A stretch of 55,012 bases of DNA from Candidatus Faecisoma merdavium (GTDB taxonomy: Bacteria > Bacillota_I > Bacilli_A > RF39 > UBA660), in the NCBI GenBank assembly GCA_018716405.1, contig DVJX01000056.1:1-55012 (forward strand), in the 5' to 3' direction. Shown here one piece after another: positions 1 to 44,695 of the stretch. Under the pieces are notes generated by a model that did no database searches, had not been told where the DNA came from, and saw only the letters and a program-made list of their open reading frames with translations. Both the position numbers and the translations under genes were made by a program. Within the stretch, counting starts at the first letter, position 1. Each line of letters opens with the position of its first letter.

Positions 1-454
1 AGAAGTTAAAAAAATATATAAAGATGCTACTCACTATTGTTATGCCTATATCTTGGATAATTTTGAAAAAGCAAGTGATGATGGTGAGCCATCTGGTACA
101 GCTGGCCTTCCTATTTTAAATGTTTTGAAAAAAGAAAATTTAAATCATGTATTATGTATTGTTATAAGATATTTTGGTGGTATTAAATTAGGTGCTGGTG
201 GACTAATAAGAGCTTATTCTAATGCTACTAAAGAAAGTATTATCACAAAAAAATATAATAAAGGCTACTTAATTAAAGTAGATATAACTTATAACAATAT
301 TAAACAAATTGAATATCAATTAAATAATAGCATTATAATTGAAAAAAATTTCAATGAAAATCCTTATTATGTTGTTAAAATAACTAAAGAAGAATTAAAT
401 AAATTAAAAATAAAATATAATATAATTAAAGAAATATATGTGGAGGAATTATGA
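1..454 (+). CDS. YigZ/IMPACT-family protein, 5' partial (frame is open from the window edge)
   Basis: Translation contains GEPSGTAGLPIL...RYFGGIKLGAGGLIRAY, typical of UPF0029/YigZ. The listed TTG at 53 is internal, because the frame continues upstream to nt 1. The stop overlaps the next start (ATGA). Confidence 0.8.
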   Translation, partial: EVKKIYKDATHYCYAYILDNFEKASDDGEPSGTAGLPILNVLKKENLNHVLCIVIRYFGGIKLGAGGLIRAYSNATKESIITKKYNKGYLIKVDITYNNIKQIEYQLNNSIIIEKNFNENPYYVVKITKEELNKLKIKYNIIKEIYVEEL

Positions 455-1632
455 AATATTTAATAATTTTTTTATTTTTATTAATACCAATTAATATCAA
501 TGCTTTAGAAATAAATTCTAGCCATGCAATTTTATATAACATGAATGAAAATACTGTTTTATTTGAAAAAGAGGCAGATACTAGAACTTATATAGCTAGT
601 TTAACTAAAATAATGACTACCATAGTAGCAATCGAAAATATTGATGACATAAATGAATATGTTACTATTCCTTATGAAGCTTTAGAAGGATTAATTGAAG
701 CTAATGCATCTGTTGCAGGATTTAAATTAGGTCAAATTGTAACATATAAAGATCTATTATATGGAATTCTACTTCCATCAGGAGCTGATGCAGCAAAAAC
801 CGTAGCCTATTATATAGCAGGAAGTGAAGAGAAATTTGTTGATTTAATGAATGAAAAAGCTGAAAATTTAGGATTAACTAATACCCATTTTGCTAACACA
901 TCAGGATTAGATACTGATAATCATTATTCAACAGTAAGAGATATAAGTATTATTTTAAAATATGCATTACAAAATGAAACATTTAAAGAAATATATACAA
1001 CTAATACATATACTACAAGTGATAATTCATTGACTTTTAAAAGTGTTTATTCTAATTATTTAAATAGATATGATTTAGAAAATAAATATATTTATGGTTC
1101 AAAAACAGGTTATACTACCCTTGCAGGTTATTGCTTGTCAACAATAGCAAATTATGATGGTGTAGAATATATGTTGATAACAACTAATGCTGATGGAACA
1201 AGCAATTATCCCCTACATATTATGGATGCTAATATGATATATGACTATTTCATAAATAACTACCATTATTTAAATATCATAAATAAAGATGATTTGCTAA
1301 TAACATTAGACACAAAAAATAGTAAAGAAGATAAATTAGAAATAAAATCTAATGAAACAATTTCTAAATATTTAAACAAAAATATTACCAATAAAGATTT
1401 ATCATTTGAATATAATGGATTAAATGAAATAGACTATTTTACTAAAAAAGGACAAATAGGTACTTTAAATATTAAATTAAATAATGAAACATTAGAAATA
1501 ATTCCAATAATGTATAATGGTGGATTAACATTTTCTTTTATTAGTTTATATCTTGATAATCTTATCATATCATTACCGATTACACTTCTTATATTAGTAT
1601 TAATATTAAAATTAAGACCTAAAAAATCTTAA
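451..1632 (+). CDS. Serine-type D-Ala-D-Ala carboxypeptidase (peptidase S11, PBP5-like) with a C-terminal membrane anchor
   Basis: N-terminal signal peptide, SxxK motif (SLTK), KTG motif (GSKTGYT) and a hydrophobic C-terminus. Confidence 0.8.
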   Translation: MKYLIIFLFLLIPININALEINSSHAILYNMNENTVLFEKEADTRTYIASLTKIMTTIVAIENIDDINEYVTIPYEALEGLIEANASVAGFKLGQIVTYKDLLYGILLPSGADAAKTVAYYIAGSEEKFVDLMNEKAENLGLTNTHFANTSGLDTDNHYSTVRDISIILKYALQNETFKEIYTTNTYTTSDNSLTFKSVYSNYLNRYDLENKYIYGSKTGYTTLAGYCLSTIANYDGVEYMLITTNADGTSNYPLHIMDANMIYDYFINNYHYLNIINKDDLLITLDTKNSKEDKLEIKSNETISKYLNKNITNKDLSFEYNGLNEIDYFTKKGQIGTLNIKLNNETLEIIPIMYNGGLTFSFISLYLDNLIISLPITLLILVLILKLRPKKS

Positions 1633-1652
1633 TTTTTTATAATTTAAATTAA

Positions 1653-1675
1653 CAAAAAAAGTGCTTATTAAGCAC
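1653..1675 (-). terminator. Rho-independent terminator after tsf
   Basis: Hairpin GTGCTT-att-AAGCAC at 1661-1675 overlaps the tsf stop. It is followed on the minus strand by a 7-nt U-run (A-run 1654-1660 on plus). Confidence 0.5.
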
Positions 1676-2540
1676 CCATTTGTTTTGCAACTTCGCTAGC
1701 GAAATCTTCTTCTTTCTTTTCCATTCCTTCGCCAACTTCAAATCTAACCATATTATCAATAGTACCACCATTATTTTTAACATAAGTTAAAACATTAATA
1801 CTATCATCTTTAACGAAAGATTGTTCTTCTAAACATGATTCTTGATAGAATTTTAACAATCTACCTTCAACCATTTTTTCAGCTATATTAGCAGGTTTAC
1901 CTTCGTTCATAGCTTGTTCTTTTAATATTTCTCTTTCTTTGTCAACTACTTCTTTAGCTAATTCATCTCTTCTTACAACTGTAGGTCTCATAGCTGCAGC
2001 ATGCATAGCAACATCTTTAGCTACTTCTTCACTAGTATTAGATAAAGTTACTAATACAGCAATTTTACCTCCCATATGTAAATAAGATCCAAATACTTGA
2101 TTATCATTTTTAGTTAATTTAGTAAATCTTCTAAAAGATAGTTTTTCACCAATTTTAGCAGTCTTATTAACAATTAAATCTTCGATAGTTTCACCATCTA
2201 CATTTAATTTTAAAACATCTTCATTAGTTTCAACATCATTATTAATAATAGCTTTTAAAATTGTATCTACTAATGATTTAAATTCTTCATTTTTAGCAAC
2301 AAAGTCTGTTTCTGAATTAACTTCAACGATAACAGCTTTATTACCATCTATTAAAGTAGCAGCTAAACCTTCAGCAGCAATTCTATCTGCTTTTTTAGCG
2401 GCTTTACTAATTCCTTTTTCTCTTAACCAGTTGATAGCTTCATCTATAGAGCCATTTGTGGCTTCTAAGGCTTTTTTACAATCAAGCATACCAGCACCAG
2501 TTGCTTCTCTTAATTCTTTTACTAAACTAGCACTTATCAT
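1668..2540 (-). CDS. tsf: Translation elongation factor Ts
   Basis: N-terminal UBA-like motif ISASLVKELREATGAGMLDCKKAL, the usual length, and the conserved position downstream of rpsB. Confidence 0.95.
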   Translation of the reverse strand: MISASLVKELREATGAGMLDCKKALEATNGSIDEAINWLREKGISKAAKKADRIAAEGLAATLIDGNKAVIVEVNSETDFVAKNEEFKSLVDTILKAIINNDVETNEDVLKLNVDGETIEDLIVNKTAKIGEKLSFRRFTKLTKNDNQVFGSYLHMGGKIAVLVTLSNTSEEVAKDVAMHAAAMRPTVVRRDELAKEVVDKEREILKEQAMNEGKPANIAEKMVEGRLLKFYQESCLEEQSFVKDDSINVLTYVKNNGGTIDNMVRFEVGEGMEKKEEDFASEVAKQMGA

Positions 2541-2552
2541 TATTATCTCTCC

Positions 2553-3545
2553 TTATTTCAAAGCTTCTAATAATTCAGCTTTTTTCATAGTTGAATAACC
2601 TTTAACTTCTTTTTCTTTTGCTAAATCTCTTAATTCAGCTACAGTCATAGAATTTAAATCAACTGTTTCTTCAACTTCTTTTTCAGCTTTTAATTCTTTT
2701 TCTACTTTTACTTCTTCTTTTTTGAAATCTTTTTTAAATGATTTTTTAAATGGCTTGTTTTCTTTTCTTGGTCTTTCATCTCTTTTTTTAACAGTCTCTA
2801 AAGCTTTTTGCATTACTTCATTAGCATTTTCTTCTTTTTTATCATTAGCATAGTTGATTATTTCTCCACCATTTGCTTCGATAACAGCATTAGCCATAAC
2901 ACTTGTAATTAATTTTACAGCTCTTATTGCATCATCATTAGCAGGTATTACATAATCAACCATATCAGGATCACAATTAGTATCAACAATTCCAAATACT
3001 GGAATATTTAATTTTCTTGCTTCTCTTATAGCAATTTCTTCTTTAGAAGGGTCTACAATGTATAAAGCTTGAGGTAATTTAGTCATTTCTCTAATACCAC
3101 ATAATAAGTTATCTAATTTAGCATATTCTTTCTTTAATCCGATAACTTCTTTTTTAGGTAATAAATCAAATGTTCCGTCAGCTTCCATTTTTTCAATTTC
3201 TTCTAATCTTCTAATTCTTCTTCTAATTGTTTTGAAATTAGTTAAAGTTCCACCTAACCATCTTTCAGTTACATAATAAGAATTTGATCTAATTGCTTCT
3301 TCTTTAATAGCTTCTTGAGCTTGTTTTCTAGTACCTACAAATAAAACTTTTCCACCATTTGCTACGATTTCCTTTAAAGCTACATAAGCTTCATCAATTT
3401 TTTTAGCTGTTTTTTGTAAATCGATAATATAGATTTCATCTCTAGAAGTATAGATGTATTCCTTCATTTTAGGATTCCATCTTTTTGTTTGATGTCCGAA
3501 GTGAACACCAGCTTCAAGTAAATAACTCATTGACACAACTGCCAT
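2553..3545 (-). CDS. rpsB: 30S ribosomal protein S2 with a ~100-aa C-terminal extension
   Basis: S2 core ([19 protein letters not shown]...). The 330 aa length exceeds the usual ~240-260. The tail is K/E-rich and ends in a Rho_N/SAP-like motif [31 protein letters not shown]. Confidence 0.95.
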
Positions 3546-3774
3546 TTTTAATTCCTCCTTTTGTTATTACTTCGAGATATTTCAAAATTACACCACTTAT
3601 AAAAGCACTAGGCATAAAAATCCATATCTGTGTATATTTACATTTTCTATAATAGCAATCCCCGAATGTAGACGGTTTAAAAAAGCCATTAATATTATAT
3701 CATAAAGTTTTTAAAAATAAACATATTTTTTTAAATTTATTAATATAATTTTAATAGATTATGGAGGAATTATA

Positions 3775-4263
3775 ATGATAAATAAAAAAAGTATATGGTT
3801 TTTAACTTTATTTAGTCTTATTTTAGTATTAAGTGTTTATTATATTACTATGCCAAGTGAATTACTAATTAGTACAAACGGAAATTATACGGAAGAAGAA
3901 CCTACTACTAATATAACTGAAAGTACTGTTTTAGTGGCATTAAGATTAGAAGCTGAAGAGGAATTATTAAAAGAGATGGAAAATCTACAATTAATATTAA
4001 ATGGGGATGGAACAATTGAAGAAAAAAATGAAGCTTTTGATAAAATGAAACAACTAAATAAAAACAAAGGTGAAGAAGAAAAATTAGAAAACAAAATTAA
4101 AGAAGTACACAATTTAGAAAGCTTTGTTAAAATTAAAAATAATCAAATTGAAATTACTGTTAAAAAAGATGAATTTGATTCTTCCTTAGCAAACAATATT
4201 ATGAGAACAATTCAAGAATTATATGAAGAAGAAAAATATATAACAGTTAAATTTGTAAAATAG
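3775..4263 (+). CDS. SpoIIIAH-like membrane protein
   Basis: The N-terminal TM KSIWFLTLFSLILVLSVYYI closely resembles the Bacillus SpoIIIAH N-terminus as I recall it. The rest is coiled/charged, with a C-terminal ITVK motif. No other spoIIIA genes are adjacent. Confidence 0.55.
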   Translation: MINKKSIWFLTLFSLILVLSVYYITMPSELLISTNGNYTEEEPTTNITESTVLVALRLEAEEELLKEMENLQLILNGDGTIEEKNEAFDKMKQLNKNKGEEEKLENKIKEVHNLESFVKIKNNQIEITVKKDEFDSSLANNIMRTIQELYEEEKYITVKFVK

Positions 4264-4343
4264 GCTTTTTCTCTCACTTATTTTTTTAAGGTACATAGAA
4301 TAATATGAAGAACTATAAACCACCTTAAGGAAGTGAGGAAAAT

Positions 4344-4550
4344 ATGTCTAAAAGTGTTCTAACAAAAAGGGAAAAACAAGTTTTTGATTTATTAATATTA
4401 AACAATACAACACACCAAATAGCTACCAAATTAAAAATAAGCGAAAAAACTGTTAGAAATCACATTTCTAATGTTATGCAAAAACTTGGTGTCAAAGGGC
4501 GTGCCGGTGCAGTTATAGAACTTTTAAAATTAAAGGAAATTTCATTGTAA
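4344..4550 (+). CDS. gerE: GerE-type LuxR-family HTH transcription regulator
   Basis: 68 aa. LTKREKQVFDLL...ISEKTVRNHISNVMQKLGVKGRAGAVIELL is near-collinear with Bacillus GerE. Confidence 0.8.
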   Translation: MSKSVLTKREKQVFDLLILNNTTHQIATKLKISEKTVRNHISNVMQKLGVKGRAGAVIELLKLKEISL

Positions 4551-5864: not shown

Positions 5865-5941
5865 TGGTGTCCCAGAAGGGATTCGAACCCCTGACCGCTG
5901 CCTTAGAAGGGCATTGCTCTATCCAACTGAGCTACTGAGAC
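5865..5941 (-). tRNA. tRNA-Arg (anticodon UCU)
   Basis: The reverse complement folds by hand into a cloverleaf. Acceptor GUCUCAG/CUGGGAC, anticodon loop CU-UCU-AA, T-loop GGTTCGAATCC, encoded CCA. Length 77 nt. Confidence 0.95.
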
Positions 5942-16091: not shown

Positions 16092-16434
16092 TGGTGGAGT
16101 CGAGGGGAATCGCACCCCTGTCCGAAAATATAAAGTTTAAAGTTCTACAAGTTTAGATAATTTGTTAATGTCCTAAATAATAATAAACTATCAAAATTTT
16201 ATTTAGTAATTTCTATATTAATTCATTAATAATCCTAGAAAAAAACTATTAATATAACTCACTAATCGAGCCTCTTTTATATTTCGTGAGTAAAAATATA
16301 AAGAAGCAGCCTTCTAATCTATTAAGCGAAAGCTAATTGATTTCTGTTTCCAGTTATTTTTAAATTTGAATGTATCGTATATCTTACGACTTGCCCTTTA
16401 AAAATTATTATTCCCGTCGAAACTAAGCGACCCC
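16092..16434 (-). ncRNA. ssrA: tmRNA (SsrA)
   Basis: 5' GGGGUCGCUUAGUUUCGACGGG and 3' GGACAGGGGUGCGAUUCCCCUCGACUCCACCA form a tRNA-like domain. An internal reading frame reads ...GGA AAC AGA AAU CAA UUA GCU UUC GCU UAA (tag ending GNRNQLAFA). Adjacent to smpB. Confidence 0.9.
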
Positions 16435-40364: not shown

Positions 40365-40546
40365 TCCTCATTAAAAATTATAATTATTTAAGATATAGCA
40401 AGCACACACATTCAACGTGTGTCATCTGATTATAACTGCAATGTATAGTTAATGTCGTATGCCTTTTTATAATATATTAACTATGCTACAACAAACTATG
40501 TTCTCTGTATGTTAGTGACAAGTCTTTTCAGTGTAATTATATCACA

Positions 40547-42352
40547 TTACCTTTCTAATTCCAATCTAACTCGAATATTTTCTATTGTTTTTCTTACTCT
40601 ACTTCCATTTTTATCTTTTTCAAAAATATTAAATCTTTGATTACTTATAACATCTAGTATTGTAATATAATTATCTGTATTGTTCAAATTATTATTTTTC
40701 TTAATCATTTCTTTTGTAATATCTTTTTTAGGTGTAAAATTGAATGATTTTTTGCATATAAATCTTATTAAATAAGAATCTTTTTCATCTTTCTCATTAT
40801 ATCCACCAATAATTACATAATCTATTAGTGCATCAAATATTTGTTCATCAAACTTCTCTATATTAAAAATTTTATCACTATTTAACATTTCTTTAAGTTT
40901 AATAATTCCTCTCTCAATTTCATCATCATCTTCTTTTACTAATTGTAGTTGTTCTATTTCTTTATCCATTTTCTCTATTTTATTCAATAATGTTGCTTTT
41001 TTGCTTTTAAATATTTCAGAATCAATAGTACCATCTACCATTAAATCTACCAATTTTGAAATTTTGTTTTCATATTCTATTTTATCTTCTTTTAATTTAT
41101 CTAATTTTTCTTTAGTTGTTCCATTTCTCATTGAATTTTTAACAATGTTAGAAATATTATCAATTATGTTATTTCTATTATTTGCTAATAACTGATAAAT
41201 ATCAATAAAAGCATTTTCTATTATTTCTTCTTTTACAATTTTTCCATCAGGACAATTATACTTTCCATTTTTTGAAGACTCAATACATTGCCAAGCAGCA
41301 ACTTTTTTAGATTGATTTACAAACATTGTCCTTCTGCCCAATGTTTCGCCACAAAATCCACAGCGAAGTCTCGAACTCATTGTATATTTACCTCCAACAT
41401 TTCCCAATCTTCTTCCTGTTGCTCTTGCTCCACACTTTGCTTTTAAAATTTCTTGAACTTTATCAAAATCTTCAACTGAAATAATTGCTTCGTGATGATT
41501 TGATATATAATATTTATCTTCTTCTCCATAATTAACTAATCTCCTGTGAGATATTGGATCTTGAGTAAAGGTTTTTCCTTGAAGTACATCTCCTTTGTAT
41601 TTTTCATTTGTTAATATTCCTCTTACCGTTGTTGCTCCCCATACATCTTTTCCTTTTGGACTTTTTATTCCCATTTTAGTTAATTGTTTTGCAATATAAT
41701 CAGCACCCCTACCATCTAAATACATTCTAAACATCATTTTAACAATATCTGCTTCATTTTCTTTAATTATCATTTTATTATTATCTGAATCATATACATA
41801 GCCGTAACAATTATTAAATCCTATTAATTCTCCACGTTCTTTTTTCATTTTCAACCCTAGTTTAACGTGAGATGAAATAGTTTCGCTTTCTTGTTGGGCT
41901 ACAGAACTTAATATTGTTAATAATAATTCTCCTGACATTTCCAATGTATTAATATTTTCTTCTTCAAAAAAAACTGCAACATTATTTTCTTTTAGTTTTC
42001 TCACATATTTCAAAGTATCTACAGTATTTCTCGCAAATCTGGATATAGATTTAGTAATAATCATATCAAATTTACCATTTATTCCATCGTGAATCATTTT
42101 CATAAAATCGTTTCTTTTATAATCCAAAGTTCCTGAAATTGCTTCATCTGCATACATATCGATATATTGCCATTCATCATTTGAAGATATTTTTTCTTTA
42201 TAATATTTTTTTTGAGACTCATAACTATTTAGTTGTTCTTCATTTCCAGTACTAACTCTTGCATAAGCAGTAACCCTTAATCTTTCAGTTATTAATAAAC
42301 CAGTATTTCTATCTACTCTACCATCTTTCTTTTTAATTATTTTTATATCCAT
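40547..42352 (-). CDS. Large serine recombinase
   Basis: Resolvase catalytic domain (AYARVSTGNEEQLNSYESQ), recombinase domain, zinc-ribbon cysteines (CGFCGETL...WQC...CPDG) and a C-terminal coiled coil. Start set at the second ATG (SD AAGGAA). Confidence 0.9.
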   Translation of the reverse strand: MDIKIIKKKDGRVDRNTGLLITERLRVTAYARVSTGNEEQLNSYESQKKYYKEKISSNDEWQYIDMYADEAISGTLDYKRNDFMKMIHDGINGKFDMIITKSISRFARNTVDTLKYVRKLKENNVAVFFEEENINTLEMSGELLLTILSSVAQQESETISSHVKLGLKMKKERGELIGFNNCYGYVYDSDNNKMIIKENEADIVKMMFRMYLDGRGADYIAKQLTKMGIKSPKGKDVWGATTVRGILTNEKYKGDVLQGKTFTQDPISHRRLVNYGEEDKYYISNHHEAIISVEDFDKVQEILKAKCGARATGRRLGNVGGKYTMSSRLRCGFCGETLGRRTMFVNQSKKVAAWQCIESSKNGKYNCPDGKIVKEEIIENAFIDIYQLLANNRNNIIDNISNIVKNSMRNGTTKEKLDKLKEDKIEYENKISKLVDLMVDGTIDSEIFKSKKATLLNKIEKMDKEIEQLQLVKEDDDEIERGIIKLKEMLNSDKIFNIEKFDEQIFDALIDYVIIGGYNEKDEKDSYLIRFICKKSFNFTPKKDITKEMIKKNNNLNNTDNYITILDVISNQRFNIFEKDKNGSRVRKTIENIRVRLELER

Positions 42353-42401
42353 AAACATTTCCTTTCTTGTTCGAACAATGCCATTTTATAAGAATAATCA
42401 A

Positions 42402-42569
42402 TTAATTACAATTGTGCGATTTATTTAATTGCACAATTGACTTTTTATAAGTTATCTCATCAATTATTTTCTTATTTTTTACAAGATTTAGAATTCGTAA
42501 CTGTTCAAGATAATCAACAAAATCTTTATTAAATGAAGAAGTTTTATTAACAATTATTTTTTTTATCAT
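42402..42569 (-). CDS. 55-aa ORF translationally coupled to the mazF stop (ATGA)
   Basis: MIKKIIVNKTSSFNKDFVDYLEQLRILNLVKNKKIIDEITYKKSIVQLNKSHNCN. Its ATG overlaps the MazF TGA. Below the ORF-track cutoff, and no family recognised. Confidence 0.3.
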   Translation of the reverse strand: MIKKIIVNKTSSFNKDFVDYLEQLRILNLVKNKKIIDEITYKKSIVQLNKSHNCN

Positions 42570-42922
42570 TTTATATCAAAAGTATCCTTTAATGATTTAT
42601 TGACTAAGTTGATTTCTTCTTCATTCAAACTACATAAAAATGATATTAATCTTGTTTTATCTAAAACTCTTACTTGTTCCAATAGAATAAGTGAATCGTG
42701 TGTTATTTTTTCATTTGATTTTATTTCTATATGTGTAGGTAGATAATTTTTCTTTTTTGATTTACTTGTTAAAGGAGCAATTAATACAGTTGGGCTATAT
42801 TTATTACCTAAGTTATTTTGAACAACCACCACTGGTCTTGTACCGTTTTGTTCACTTCCTATAATAGGATCTAAATTAGCATAATAAATATCTCCTTTTT
42901 TTATTACCCTATCTTCGTTCAT
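42566..42922 (-). CDS. mazF: MazF/PemK-family type II toxin endoribonuclease
   Basis: KGDIYYANLDPIIGSEQNGTRPVVVVQNN...VLIAPLTS signature. Start set at MNEDR, overlapping the upstream ORF by 14 nt. Confidence 0.85.
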   Translation of the reverse strand: MNEDRVIKKGDIYYANLDPIIGSEQNGTRPVVVVQNNLGNKYSPTVLIAPLTSKSKKKNYLPTHIEIKSNEKITHDSLILLEQVRVLDKTRLISFLCSLNEEEINLVNKSLKDTFDIK

Positions 42923-43127
42923 TTTTATTAATCTCAACTTTATAAATAGTATGTGGTGTTTCATTATTAATTAGATTTCTAATATCTAAATTGTTATTTT
43001 TTCTTAAATAGTTATCTACTAGCCCTTTAACATCTGCTTTTGCTCTTTCCATACTTGTTTGCGTATGATCCATTGTTATAATATATTCTAATTTTACAGT
43101 TACTCTGTATCTTTTACTTTTCTTCAT
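42909..43127 (-). CDS. 72-aa protein in the antitoxin position (no recognisable MazE/AbrB or RHH signature)
   Basis: Overlaps the mazF start. AGGAGG is present but 13 nt from the ATG. Confidence 0.4.
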   Translation of the reverse strand: MKKSKRYRVTVKLEYIITMDHTQTSMERAKADVKGLVDNYLRKNNNLDIRNLINNETPHTIYKVEINKNERR

Positions 43128-43157
43128 ATTAAAAATTTTTCCTCCTTATATGTAAAA

Positions 43158-43181
43158 GCACGAGATAGTAAAATCTCGTGC
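43158..43181 (-). terminator. Leader hairpin or weak terminator just upstream of the TA operon SD
   Basis: GCACGAGAU-uuuacua-UCUCGUGC followed by UUUU on the minus strand. Confidence 0.35.
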
Positions 43182-43194
43182 TAAATTTATTTTT

Positions 43195-43430
43195 ATTGTT
43201 TAAGTAACTGATATTTTTCCTCGAACCCCTCAGTCTTTGGGAAATCATCAAACGATTAAATTGCTAATTTAATCTCACAGGAATTCCACCTCCCCGAGGA
43301 TCTCTCCGGGCTGCCCCCATTGCTTTAGGCTGTGGCTAGACAGGAGTATCTTTAATACTACTATTAATCTTCGCATATTAGTTGCTAACTAATTTTATAA
43401 CCAAACAATTATCGTCAAGCGTATTTGTTA
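43195..43430 (-). ncRNA. Unclassified GC-rich structured element (candidate ncRNA or cis-regulatory leader); strand tentative
   Basis: A ~130-nt core (about 43218-43352) is far more G+C-rich than anything nearby. It has no ORF and several hand-foldable helices. See the findings. Confidence 0.35.
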
Positions 43431-43500
43431 AAGTGCTTATAATAGTAGGAACGTATTTGATGAATGTATATACAATTGTCAAAGATCTCCTGTTTCCAAC

Positions 43501-43549
43501 AAAAAAGGAAACAGTGAAAGGATGATTTATTACCCTCTCAACTGTTTCC
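43501..43549 (-). terminator. Terminator after the sigma-like gene
   Basis: GGAAACAG...(27 nt)...CUGUUUCC followed by U6 on the minus strand. Confidence 0.55.
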
Positions 43550-43581
43550 TCACTAAAACGTAAAATTTGTAGTCTAATTTG

Positions 43582-44052
43582 TTAATTTTTTAAAATTTCT
43601 TTTAATTTTTTGATTGCAATATCTAAACTGAACTTTACTGCTCTATGTGTACAATGTTCTTCTTTTGCGATTTCTTTCAGTGTTTTTTCATCAAAATAGT
43701 ACTTTTTTATTCTTCTTTTTTGTATTTCAGGAAGTAAATTAATTGCAATCATTAAATTTTCATAAGACGATTTTCTTATAACAGAATCCTCAACACTTAA
43801 AGGTTTGTTCATTATTCTTGTATTTAATTTATTGTCAGTTAGTTCCGAATGTTCTATATGCCTATCATATTCATTAAGTTCTTTTAAATCATCTAGTTCA
43901 AATCTATCCATTGCTTCATATATTTCTTTGCTAACTTGCACTTCATTATTTTTATTATTAATATCTTTAAATATTATAAAGTAAGTATTATTAATTACTT
44001 TTAACATATAAGGATTATCATTACTTTTCCTTCTTTTTGGTCTATTAACCAT
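43582..44052 (-). CDS. Sigma-70 region-4-type HTH regulator typical of Firmicute mobile elements
   Basis: C-terminal LPEIQKRRIKKYYFDEKTLKEIAKEEHCTHRAVKFSLDIAIKKLKEIL. Start set at the ATG 8 nt after GGAGG. Confidence 0.65.
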   Translation of the reverse strand: MVNRPKRRKSNDNPYMLKVINNTYFIIFKDINNKNNEVQVSKEIYEAMDRFELDDLKELNEYDRHIEHSELTDNKLNTRIMNKPLSVEDSVIRKSSYENLMIAINLLPEIQKRRIKKYYFDEKTLKEIAKEEHCTHRAVKFSLDIAIKKLKEILKN

Positions 44053-44132
44053 TCCATTTTCCTCCAATCAATTCGTTTTTTTTGAATTGATTGAAGGTGG
44101 AGATCTACATCTTATAATTATTTTTTTATAAC

Positions 44133-44177
44133 AAAAAAAACCGATTATAAAACTCGATGGTCGAGCCTTATAATCGG
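44133..44177 (-). terminator. Strong Rho-independent terminator
   Basis: CCGAUUAUAA...CUCGA-cca-UCGAG...UUAUAAUCGG followed by U8 on the minus strand. Confidence 0.7.
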
Positions 44178-44695
44178 CGTCAATAAGAACTTCAAAATAT
44201 GAATTTAATGCTTTTTGAGAGCATAAAATAGAATAGAAATTTTGTTTATAATAATAATCTTGAAATTTTCTAAACTTAATATAATACACTCTCATAATGG
44301 CAGTACTCCCCCGAGCAATGCCTCATATAAGAGTTAACGAGTATTTTTTCATTTGTACAATTCGTTTTTTTATTATCTCTTATATAATTAACCAGTAATA
44401 TTATTATCCAATAATAAAAAAGTACTGCCTAATCATTTTTATTATTTTCTATTCTTTTAAATTTATATACCCCTTTTCTCACAATATCACAGATTTGTGG
44501 CATTGCTAAAAAACAATAAAATAATCACTAAAAATTATTTAGTTGCTATAATACCATATTTTTCCTAAAAAAGTTGTCGAAATATGCCGAAAGTATGTTA
44601 TTTTTGCCTAAACGTTTTTTTTTTTGTCTAAAAGCATAAAAAAAGATGTTATATTTCAATATAAACACCTTTCTATAAACTATTTTAGTTAATTA

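Follow-up and report, generated by a model that had tools for sequence, protein, structure and literature searches.

A pemK-family RNA with covarying helices beyond its Rfam model, probably a canT-like antiterminator, in a serine-recombinase island of an uncultured RF39 bacterium

An RNA of the known pemK/canT family is encoded on the minus strand of a contig from Candidatus Faecisoma merdavium, where the conserved RNA spans 280 nt (43485-43206, minus strand; Table 1) of the 55,012-nt stretch of DNA analyzed here, hereafter the window. This RNA probably acts in cis as a canT-like processive antiterminator of the serine-recombinase island in which it lies. The grounds for this reading in the present analysis are its family membership, an extended covarying architecture, a conserved gene context and the presence of the RNA in metatranscriptomes; antitermination itself is the most likely activity of the window copy by homology with canT of the transposon Tn916. 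An earlier note, made from the sequence alone, had described a structured, strand-specific and cis-located non-coding RNA forming the leader of a MazF/recombinase operon, and the RF02913 match and covarying helices given below bear this out. Its interval of 43195-43430 is too short at the 5' end. Its suggestion of a riboswitch, or of a small RNA controlling the toxin module, has to give way, as experiments on the Tn916 homologue point to processive antitermination and PemK is encoded downstream in a minority of family loci.

The earlier note had left the RNA unclassified and proposed an Rfam scan. In such a scan of the whole window, RF02913 (pemK RNA) was matched over its full length (model positions 1-61 of 61) at 43275-43355 on the minus strand, scoring 62.5 bits against a gathering score of 34.8, with E-values of 6e-9 in the window scan and 6e-11 in a local scan. 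This match also confirms the minus-strand polarity that the note had favored. All hallmarks of the family are present, namely three adjacent hairpins (P1-P3), the conserved 5' strand (A/U)UAA(U/A)GAUACU and the GGUGAAAUUCC loop (GGUGRAAUUCC in the family), as is the setting in a Firmicutes mobile element upstream of a pemK/mazF gene; P1 of the window differs from the model in its 18-nt insertion. P2 is the hairpin CCCGGAG/CUCGGGG that had earlier been drawn by hand. A permissive local scan (E <= 1) gave no family with a meaningful score except pemK and no ligand class, and the put RNA of HK022 and the EAR RNA matched neither there nor in the scan at gathering threshold. Rfam matches in the window number three, the other two being a tmRNA gene (118 bits; 16092-16434) and a tRNA gene (5868-5941), both on the minus strand and unrelated to the RNA. 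A covariance-model search found a single pemK copy in the 1.3-Mb genome, and the motif occurs in 7 of 61 relatives and, across the class, in 24 of 401 genomes, a patchy distribution of the kind expected for mobile DNA. The pemK motif is among the 224 candidate RNAs of Weinberg et al. 2017 (PMC5737381), in the main text of which it goes unmentioned. Rfam 15 lists it solely as a family with a structure improved by R-scape, its Rfam function label is 'cis-reg' with nothing further, and a literature search on the motif by name found nothing.

The G+C-rich core stands out as first described, with 54% G+C at 43275-43355 and 45% at 43206-43355 vs 25% in the whole window, and the minus-strand sequence quoted for it is present. 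The core had also been said to contain no ORF; two short ORFs do overlap the region, a 40-aa TTG ORF (43129-43251, minus strand) and a 47-aa ORF (43382-43525, plus strand), both of which are probably spurious.

Table 1. Features of the RNA and its surroundings in the window, from upstream to downstream on the minus strand.
Feature	Position	Strand	Basis or remark
Sigma-like gene, 161 aa, sigma-70 region 4 only	43582-44067	-	Upstream of RNA
Terminator-like hairpin GGAAACAG...CUGUUUCC with U-tract, third arm GGAAACAG	43490-43549	-	After sigma-like gene
Conserved 5' motif GAUCUUUGACAAUUG, boxA-like	43473-43487	-	Family alignment
H0 5' strand UCAUCAAAU	43455-43463	-	Pairs with 43253-43245
H0-H1 junction ACGUUC, conserved	43449-43454	-	Anchor AC(A/G/U)UU in 70/71 sequences
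H1 5' strand CUACUAUUA	43440-43448	-	Pairs with 43366-43358
Domain inside H1	43367-43439	-	Alignments; helices by eye, partly recovered in minimum-free-energy fold
Helix AACAA/UUGUU	within 43367-43439	-	By eye
Cap CGCUUGACG	43421-43413	-	By eye; stands in for K-turn-like element and hairpin of most relatives
Hairpin AUUAGUU-AGC-AACUAAU	43393-43377	-	By eye
Conserved GCGAAGA	43374-43368	-	Alignments
H1 3' strand UAAUAGUAG	43358-43366	-	Directly 5' of Rfam core
Rfam pemK core	43275-43355	-	RF02913 covariance-model alignment
5' single strand of pemK core, UUAAAGAUACU	start of 43275-43355	-	RF02913 alignment
P1, with 18-nt loop insertion	43344-43311	-	RF02913 alignment
P2, CCCGGAG/CUCGGGG	43310-43292	-	RF02913 alignment
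P3, AGG-UGGAAUU-CCU	43291-43279	-	RF02913 alignment
P4 hairpin GAUUAAAUU-AGC-AAUUUAAUC, 9 bp	43254-43274	-	Covariation; outside Rfam model
H0 3' strand GUUUGAUGA	43245-43253	-	Pairs with 43463-43455
3' domain	43206-43244	-	Alignment and pairing tests
S1 5' strand UUUCCC	43244-43239	-	Weak pairing evidence
S2 5' strand GACUGA	43235-43230	-	Pairs with UCAGUU
Conserved loop GGGGUUCGAGGAAAAAUA	43229-43212	-	Enclosed by S2
S2 3' strand UCAGUU	43211-43206	-	Pairs with GACUGA
10-bp hairpin	43182-43157	-	Followed by UUU
UACAUA	43154-43149	-	Between RNA hairpin and Shine-Dalgarno
Shine-Dalgarno AAGGAGG of 72-aa ORF	43147-43141	-	
Downstream operon: 72-aa ORF, MazF/PemK toxin, 55-aa ORF, large serine recombinase	40547-43127	-	

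Conservation reaches far past the 61 positions of the Rfam model on both sides, the window RNA and its family extending ~130 nt upstream and ~70 nt downstream. This was followed in an alignment that combined 31 loci found by searching whole genomes with 120 loci that a pattern scan picked out in species-representative genomes; helices were parsed from sequence anchors. The comparison of homologues that the earlier note had called for yielded four covarying helices outside the model (H0, H1, P4 and S2), seen across 56-70 non-redundant relatives. H0, which encloses ~200 nt, forms at least 7 of 8 pairs in 61 of 70 non-redundant sequences, with 36 distinct 5' strands. H1 does so in 66 of 70, with 54 distinct strands, compared with 17% in a cross-paired control. 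Both were tested in a fixed register set by the anchors; a search for the longest complementary stretch was too noisy, its controls scoring nearly as high. The 9-bp hairpin of the earlier note is real and corresponds to P4, whose structure is kept across 56 distinct sequences (a stem of at least 5 bp in 95% of them vs 6% when shuffled). S2 forms at least five stacked pairs in 90% of 68 unique contexts vs 9% of cross-paired controls, with 30 distinct 5-bp helices. A DNA-level element is most improbable, be it an oriT, a single-strand origin or clustered binding sites for the recombinase or sigma factors. Location in a mobile element near a recombinase and the many inverted repeats would suit such an element, but the covariance-model match is strand-specific, H0 and S2 use G-U pairs, canT function is orientation-specific and RNA is recovered in metatranscriptomes without its flanks.

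In most relatives, the domain inside H1 contains a K-turn-like element recognized by eye, CGCC-AUGA-C[hairpin]-GA-GCG, composed of a C-stem (CGC/GCG), a 3-nt bulge, tandem G-A pairs and a variable hairpin (e.g. 1403-1440 of locus L004, oriented); by eye, the window and its close relatives have a CUUG(A) cap at this place. Five loci (L025, L148, L033, L082 and L085) lack the whole H1 domain, with the pemK core directly following the H0 5' strand, and the RNA is therefore modular.

Pairings within the 3' domain are less uniform. The opening Gs of the conserved loop may pair with UUUCCC (S1) to form an H-type pseudoknot, a proposal drawn from the alignment, in which S1 is mostly invariant CCC/GGG with five compensatory CCU/AGG cases. 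The earlier note had instead paired UUUCCC with GGGGAG; the downstream GGGG is its more plausible partner, on weak evidence. The long-range helix UCCUCGGG:UUCGAGGA was rejected, as it does not covary: P2 and loop from the same sequence score 5.94 of 7 pairs and cross-paired controls 5.95, UUCGAGGA staying constant while P2 varies. UUCGAGGA is part of the conserved loop that is closed by the covarying helix S2. The conserved loop might also pair with the 5' motif (UCUUUGA/UCGAGGA), as all 7 positions pair in 66% of cases and in 33% with the loop shuffled; this helix is G-U-rich and barely covarying, with an uncompensated change in one lineage.

The probable function of the RNA follows from its relationship with canT. 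Located between orf8 and xis of Tn916, canT is a cis-acting, orientation-specific and processive antiterminator, which, unaided by other Tn916 genes, overcomes heterologous and multiple terminators, is inactive in trans, and has a structure that the authors were unable to interpret (Wirachman & Grossman 2024, PMC11658703). Counted from the orf8 stop, it is inactivated by S3 (ATA>TGC, nt 283-285) and by a 162-bp deletion (nt 229-390; PMC11658703). Two family loci in the present alignment belong to Tn916-type elements, in which the motif closely precedes Xis. The published canT coordinates were placed on locus L004, whose canT region is 100% identical to Enterococcus plasmid copies annotated 'excisionase from transposon Tn916', and this mapping reproduces four details of the paper (orf5 of 83 codons, codon 30 GCA, codon 65 TAT (Tyr, S3) and M1I silent in xis). 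The pemK match of L004 is at 1501-1601; S3 falls on 1501-1503, where the Rfam model begins (its nucleotides 1-3), and the deletion, 1447-1608, takes out the entire pemK motif. The S3 triplet is AUA in Tn916 and UUA (43355-43353) in the window. H0 (strands AAUCGAAU/GUUCGAUU in Tn916), H1 and P4 are common to Tn916 canT and the window RNA, which together with the family match shows homology to the mutationally defined canT region. An orphan Rfam motif, coinciding with the mutationally defined core of canT, thereby gains a likely function, and the covariation-supported H0, H1, P4 and S2 offer specific helices for canT mutagenesis. The link between pemK and canT is absent from the literature consulted: neither Rfam nor pemK is mentioned in two Tn916 papers or in the pLS20 conAn paper (PMC8191782), the latter also not mentioning Tn916, and none of the papers found citing RF02913 concerns canT.

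The two RNAs are not identical in architecture. Both have a boxA-like 5' motif and lie on one strand between a sigma-like regulator and recombination genes, whereas Tn916 lacks the 3' domain of S2 and conserved loop and has the K-turn-like element in place of the window's small cap. Tn916 carries orf7 and orf8 (a split sigma factor), Xis and a tyrosine integrase, whereas the window combines one region-4 protein with a MazF module and a serine recombinase. No homologue of orf8/Sig8 is present, and the likeness of the sigma-like protein to full-length Orf7 is weak and confined to region 4 (BLASTP, E = 0.13). The window element also carries BREX genes rather than conjugation genes. Antiterminator activity is known for the Tn916 copy and is attributed to the window copy by homology. 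If the window RNA works likewise, the nascent RNA would fold, remain tethered to its own RNA polymerase and make this polymerase resistant to terminators, possibly with help from host Nus factors recruited via the boxA-like motif. Transcripts begun upstream of the RNA would then pass the downstream hairpin and later stop signals, and read-through would express the 72-aa ORF, MazF, the 55-aa ORF and the recombinase; after excision, transcripts might also read across the joined ends. Against this reading, BREX cargo without conjugation genes leaves the purpose of read-through unclear. Comparable behavior of a cis-acting nascent RNA, which makes RNA polymerase terminator-resistant along a long mobile-element or operon transcript, is found in HK022 put, B. 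subtilis EAR and pLS20 conAn1/conAn2 (PMC8191782), though the analogy is functional only, as no sequence or structure relationship to the window RNA was detected.

Nearly every family member has at its 5' edge a conserved motif, with the consensus (G)UUCUUUGAMAAY; GAUCUUUGACAAU of the window fits 12 of 13 positions of the degenerate consensus K-Y-TCTTTGA-M-AA-Y. In complete genomes of the same class, the 13-mer GTTCTTTGAAAAC precedes 16S rRNA by ~70 nt and recurs in the 16S-23S spacer (L157, L163, L169, L161 and L167). The boxA antitermination signal of rrn operons is located in the leader and in this spacer, and the GTTCTTTGAAAAC element of these operons is presumably a functional boxA. A boxA sequence is thus found where an antiterminator would carry it, at the 5' end, which suggests that Nus factors may be recruited through the motif. 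The boxA pattern was absent in the window's own genome and in close relatives, these being MAGs that probably lack rRNA operons. In relation to rrn and lambda nut antitermination (boxA, NusB/NusE), the window motif is essentially the rrn leader/spacer sequence, whereas rrn leaders have nothing corresponding to the large structured RNA downstream of it. The canT fragment of 452 bp, which is active, starts within the conserved 5' motif, at TTGAAAACTG, and lacks its first five nucleotides (GTTCT), evidence against a need for an intact boxA; Nus dependence at the window RNA is a suggestion from sequence. The earlier note had read promoter elements in this region. Its -35-like boxes are present in sequence, and both lie inside conserved RNA elements (TTGACA in the boxA-like motif, TTGACG in the helix cap); with no acceptable -10 box at the right spacing, a sigma-70 promoter at either was rejected. 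Immediately 5' of the RNA, the third arm GGAAACAG of the terminator-like hairpin is able to re-pair with the middle arm. By eye, this three-arm layout recurs in relatives with differing, covarying arms, which marks it as a conserved part of the entry to the RNA.

The flanking genes are as first described, with the sigma-like gene upstream and the MazF operon downstream; a brxL gene lies further upstream, on the minus strand like the others. The RNA thus has a canT-like position on the same strand between a sigma-type regulator and excision/integration genes. In the family, the upstream ORF is of the Sigma70_r4_2 type in 17 of 29 cases and of the orf8-type HTH_16 in 5. A recombinase is encoded within three ORFs downstream in 19 of 30 loci (15 serine recombinases and 4 tyrosine integrases) and PemK within the same distance in only 6 of 30, so the pemK gene is a frequent passenger, not the defining partner, of this RNA family. 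Between a point shortly after the recombinase stop and one shortly before brxL (40406-44672), the window is 99.8% identical to 109-4376 of locus L069 in another MAG. This 4.27-kb segment contains the serine recombinase, the 55-aa ORF, MazF, the 72-aa ORF, the RNA, the sigma-like gene and a strong terminator. The flanks of L069 are unrelated on both sides, with an HTH regulator, a response regulator and a radical-SAM protein as cargo, and the RNA therefore belongs to a portable integration/regulation module. The left boundary of the module coincides with an inverted repeat, ACACAC...GTGTGT, which adjoins a GNAT gene and marks the left end of the island. A distant-mode search of a plasmid collection with 43130-43600 gave no match. 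As the module travels with BREX genes here, in an uncultured bacterium of the small-genome RF39 lineage, and with other cargo elsewhere, such antiterminator cassettes are not confined to conjugative transposons. The extended architecture and this setting in a BREX-carrying serine-recombinase island of RF39 are modest new information.

Metagenomes of chicken gut, bovine gut, faeces, dust and soil, obtained in several studies, contain the exact sequence of 43100-43600. In two gut metatranscriptomes (X28 and X29), the sole contigs over 41800-44500 were 43209-43528 (320 nt, depth 11) and 43180-43485 (306 nt, depth 21). An RNA-type run (X31) had only 43195-43426 and a fourth run only 43281-43559; other runs covered the whole region evenly, possibly with DNA. 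The contigs carry no strand information, and their pattern fits a discrete, abundant RNA. Contig ends near the downstream hairpin are just as compatible with termination or cleavage of most transcripts at that point, and De Bruijn assembly can break at the borders of conserved sequence.

These ends, at 43180, 43195 and 43209, bear on whether the RNA is an attenuator that senses a ligand or protein, sets a stop at the hairpin at 43182-43157 and so controls the MazF operon. A structured leader followed by a hairpin ~25 nt before the Shine-Dalgarno also has the layout of such a device. It is unlikely here, since no mutually exclusive pairing between RNA and hairpin is conserved, the proposed competitor between P2 and UUCGAGGA failing to covary, and Tn916 canT works on heterologous and multiple terminators without other element genes. 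The earlier note had ended the element in a hairpin and U-run. The 10-bp hairpin is there, but its tail is only UUU before ACAUA; the hairpin is therefore a weak terminator and may not be a real one, and many family members, Tn916 among them, have no hairpin directly downstream. The attenuator, like a toxin-directed RNA or a DNA element, fits the comparative data and the Tn916 genetics less well than antitermination does.

Firmicutes MazF/EndoA enzymes cleave at UACAU (U^ACAU). This sequence lies within 260 nt downstream of the RNA in 56 of 84 non-redundant relatives (in shuffled sequences, 26 on average and 37 at most). Its usual arrangement is hairpin-U(n)-UACAUA-SD, and it is absent from the MazF operon itself (43127-42402; 0 occurrences, 1.3 expected). 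A role of UACAUA in processing is possible on this distribution. The conserved UACAUA between RNA and first gene, the adjoining MazF gene, an upstream 72-aa ORF without an antitoxin family match and the accumulation of a discrete RNA would all be in keeping with an RNA partner of the toxin, be it a trans-acting sRNA, an RNA antitoxin for MazF, or a decoy or substrate cut at UACAU. Such a partner is nevertheless very unlikely, because PemK is rarely encoded downstream in the family, the conserved RNA core is independent of the presence of MazF, canT is inactive in trans, and the 72-aa ORF, conserved beside MazF in relatives, is the likelier antitoxin. Antitermination and cleavage might also be combined, though this is a doubtful extension: the RNA would be a modular device modifying RNA polymerase, with a 5' Nus site, a ~250-nt H0/H1 scaffold, a 3' pseudoknot and a UACAUA severed by MazF. 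The island's or the host's MazF would cut the antiterminator RNA off the elongating polymerase or the mRNA, and toxin activity would feed back on read-through into toxin, recombinase and post-excision cargo. Such severing, if true, would explain pemK as the family's name-giving neighbor.

The 72-aa ORF (42909-43127) has no antitoxin, Pfam or NCBIfam family match and is a candidate for a new family of MazF antitoxins. Its homologues adjoin MazF in loci L028, L017, L006 and L022, lying downstream of the toxin in L022.
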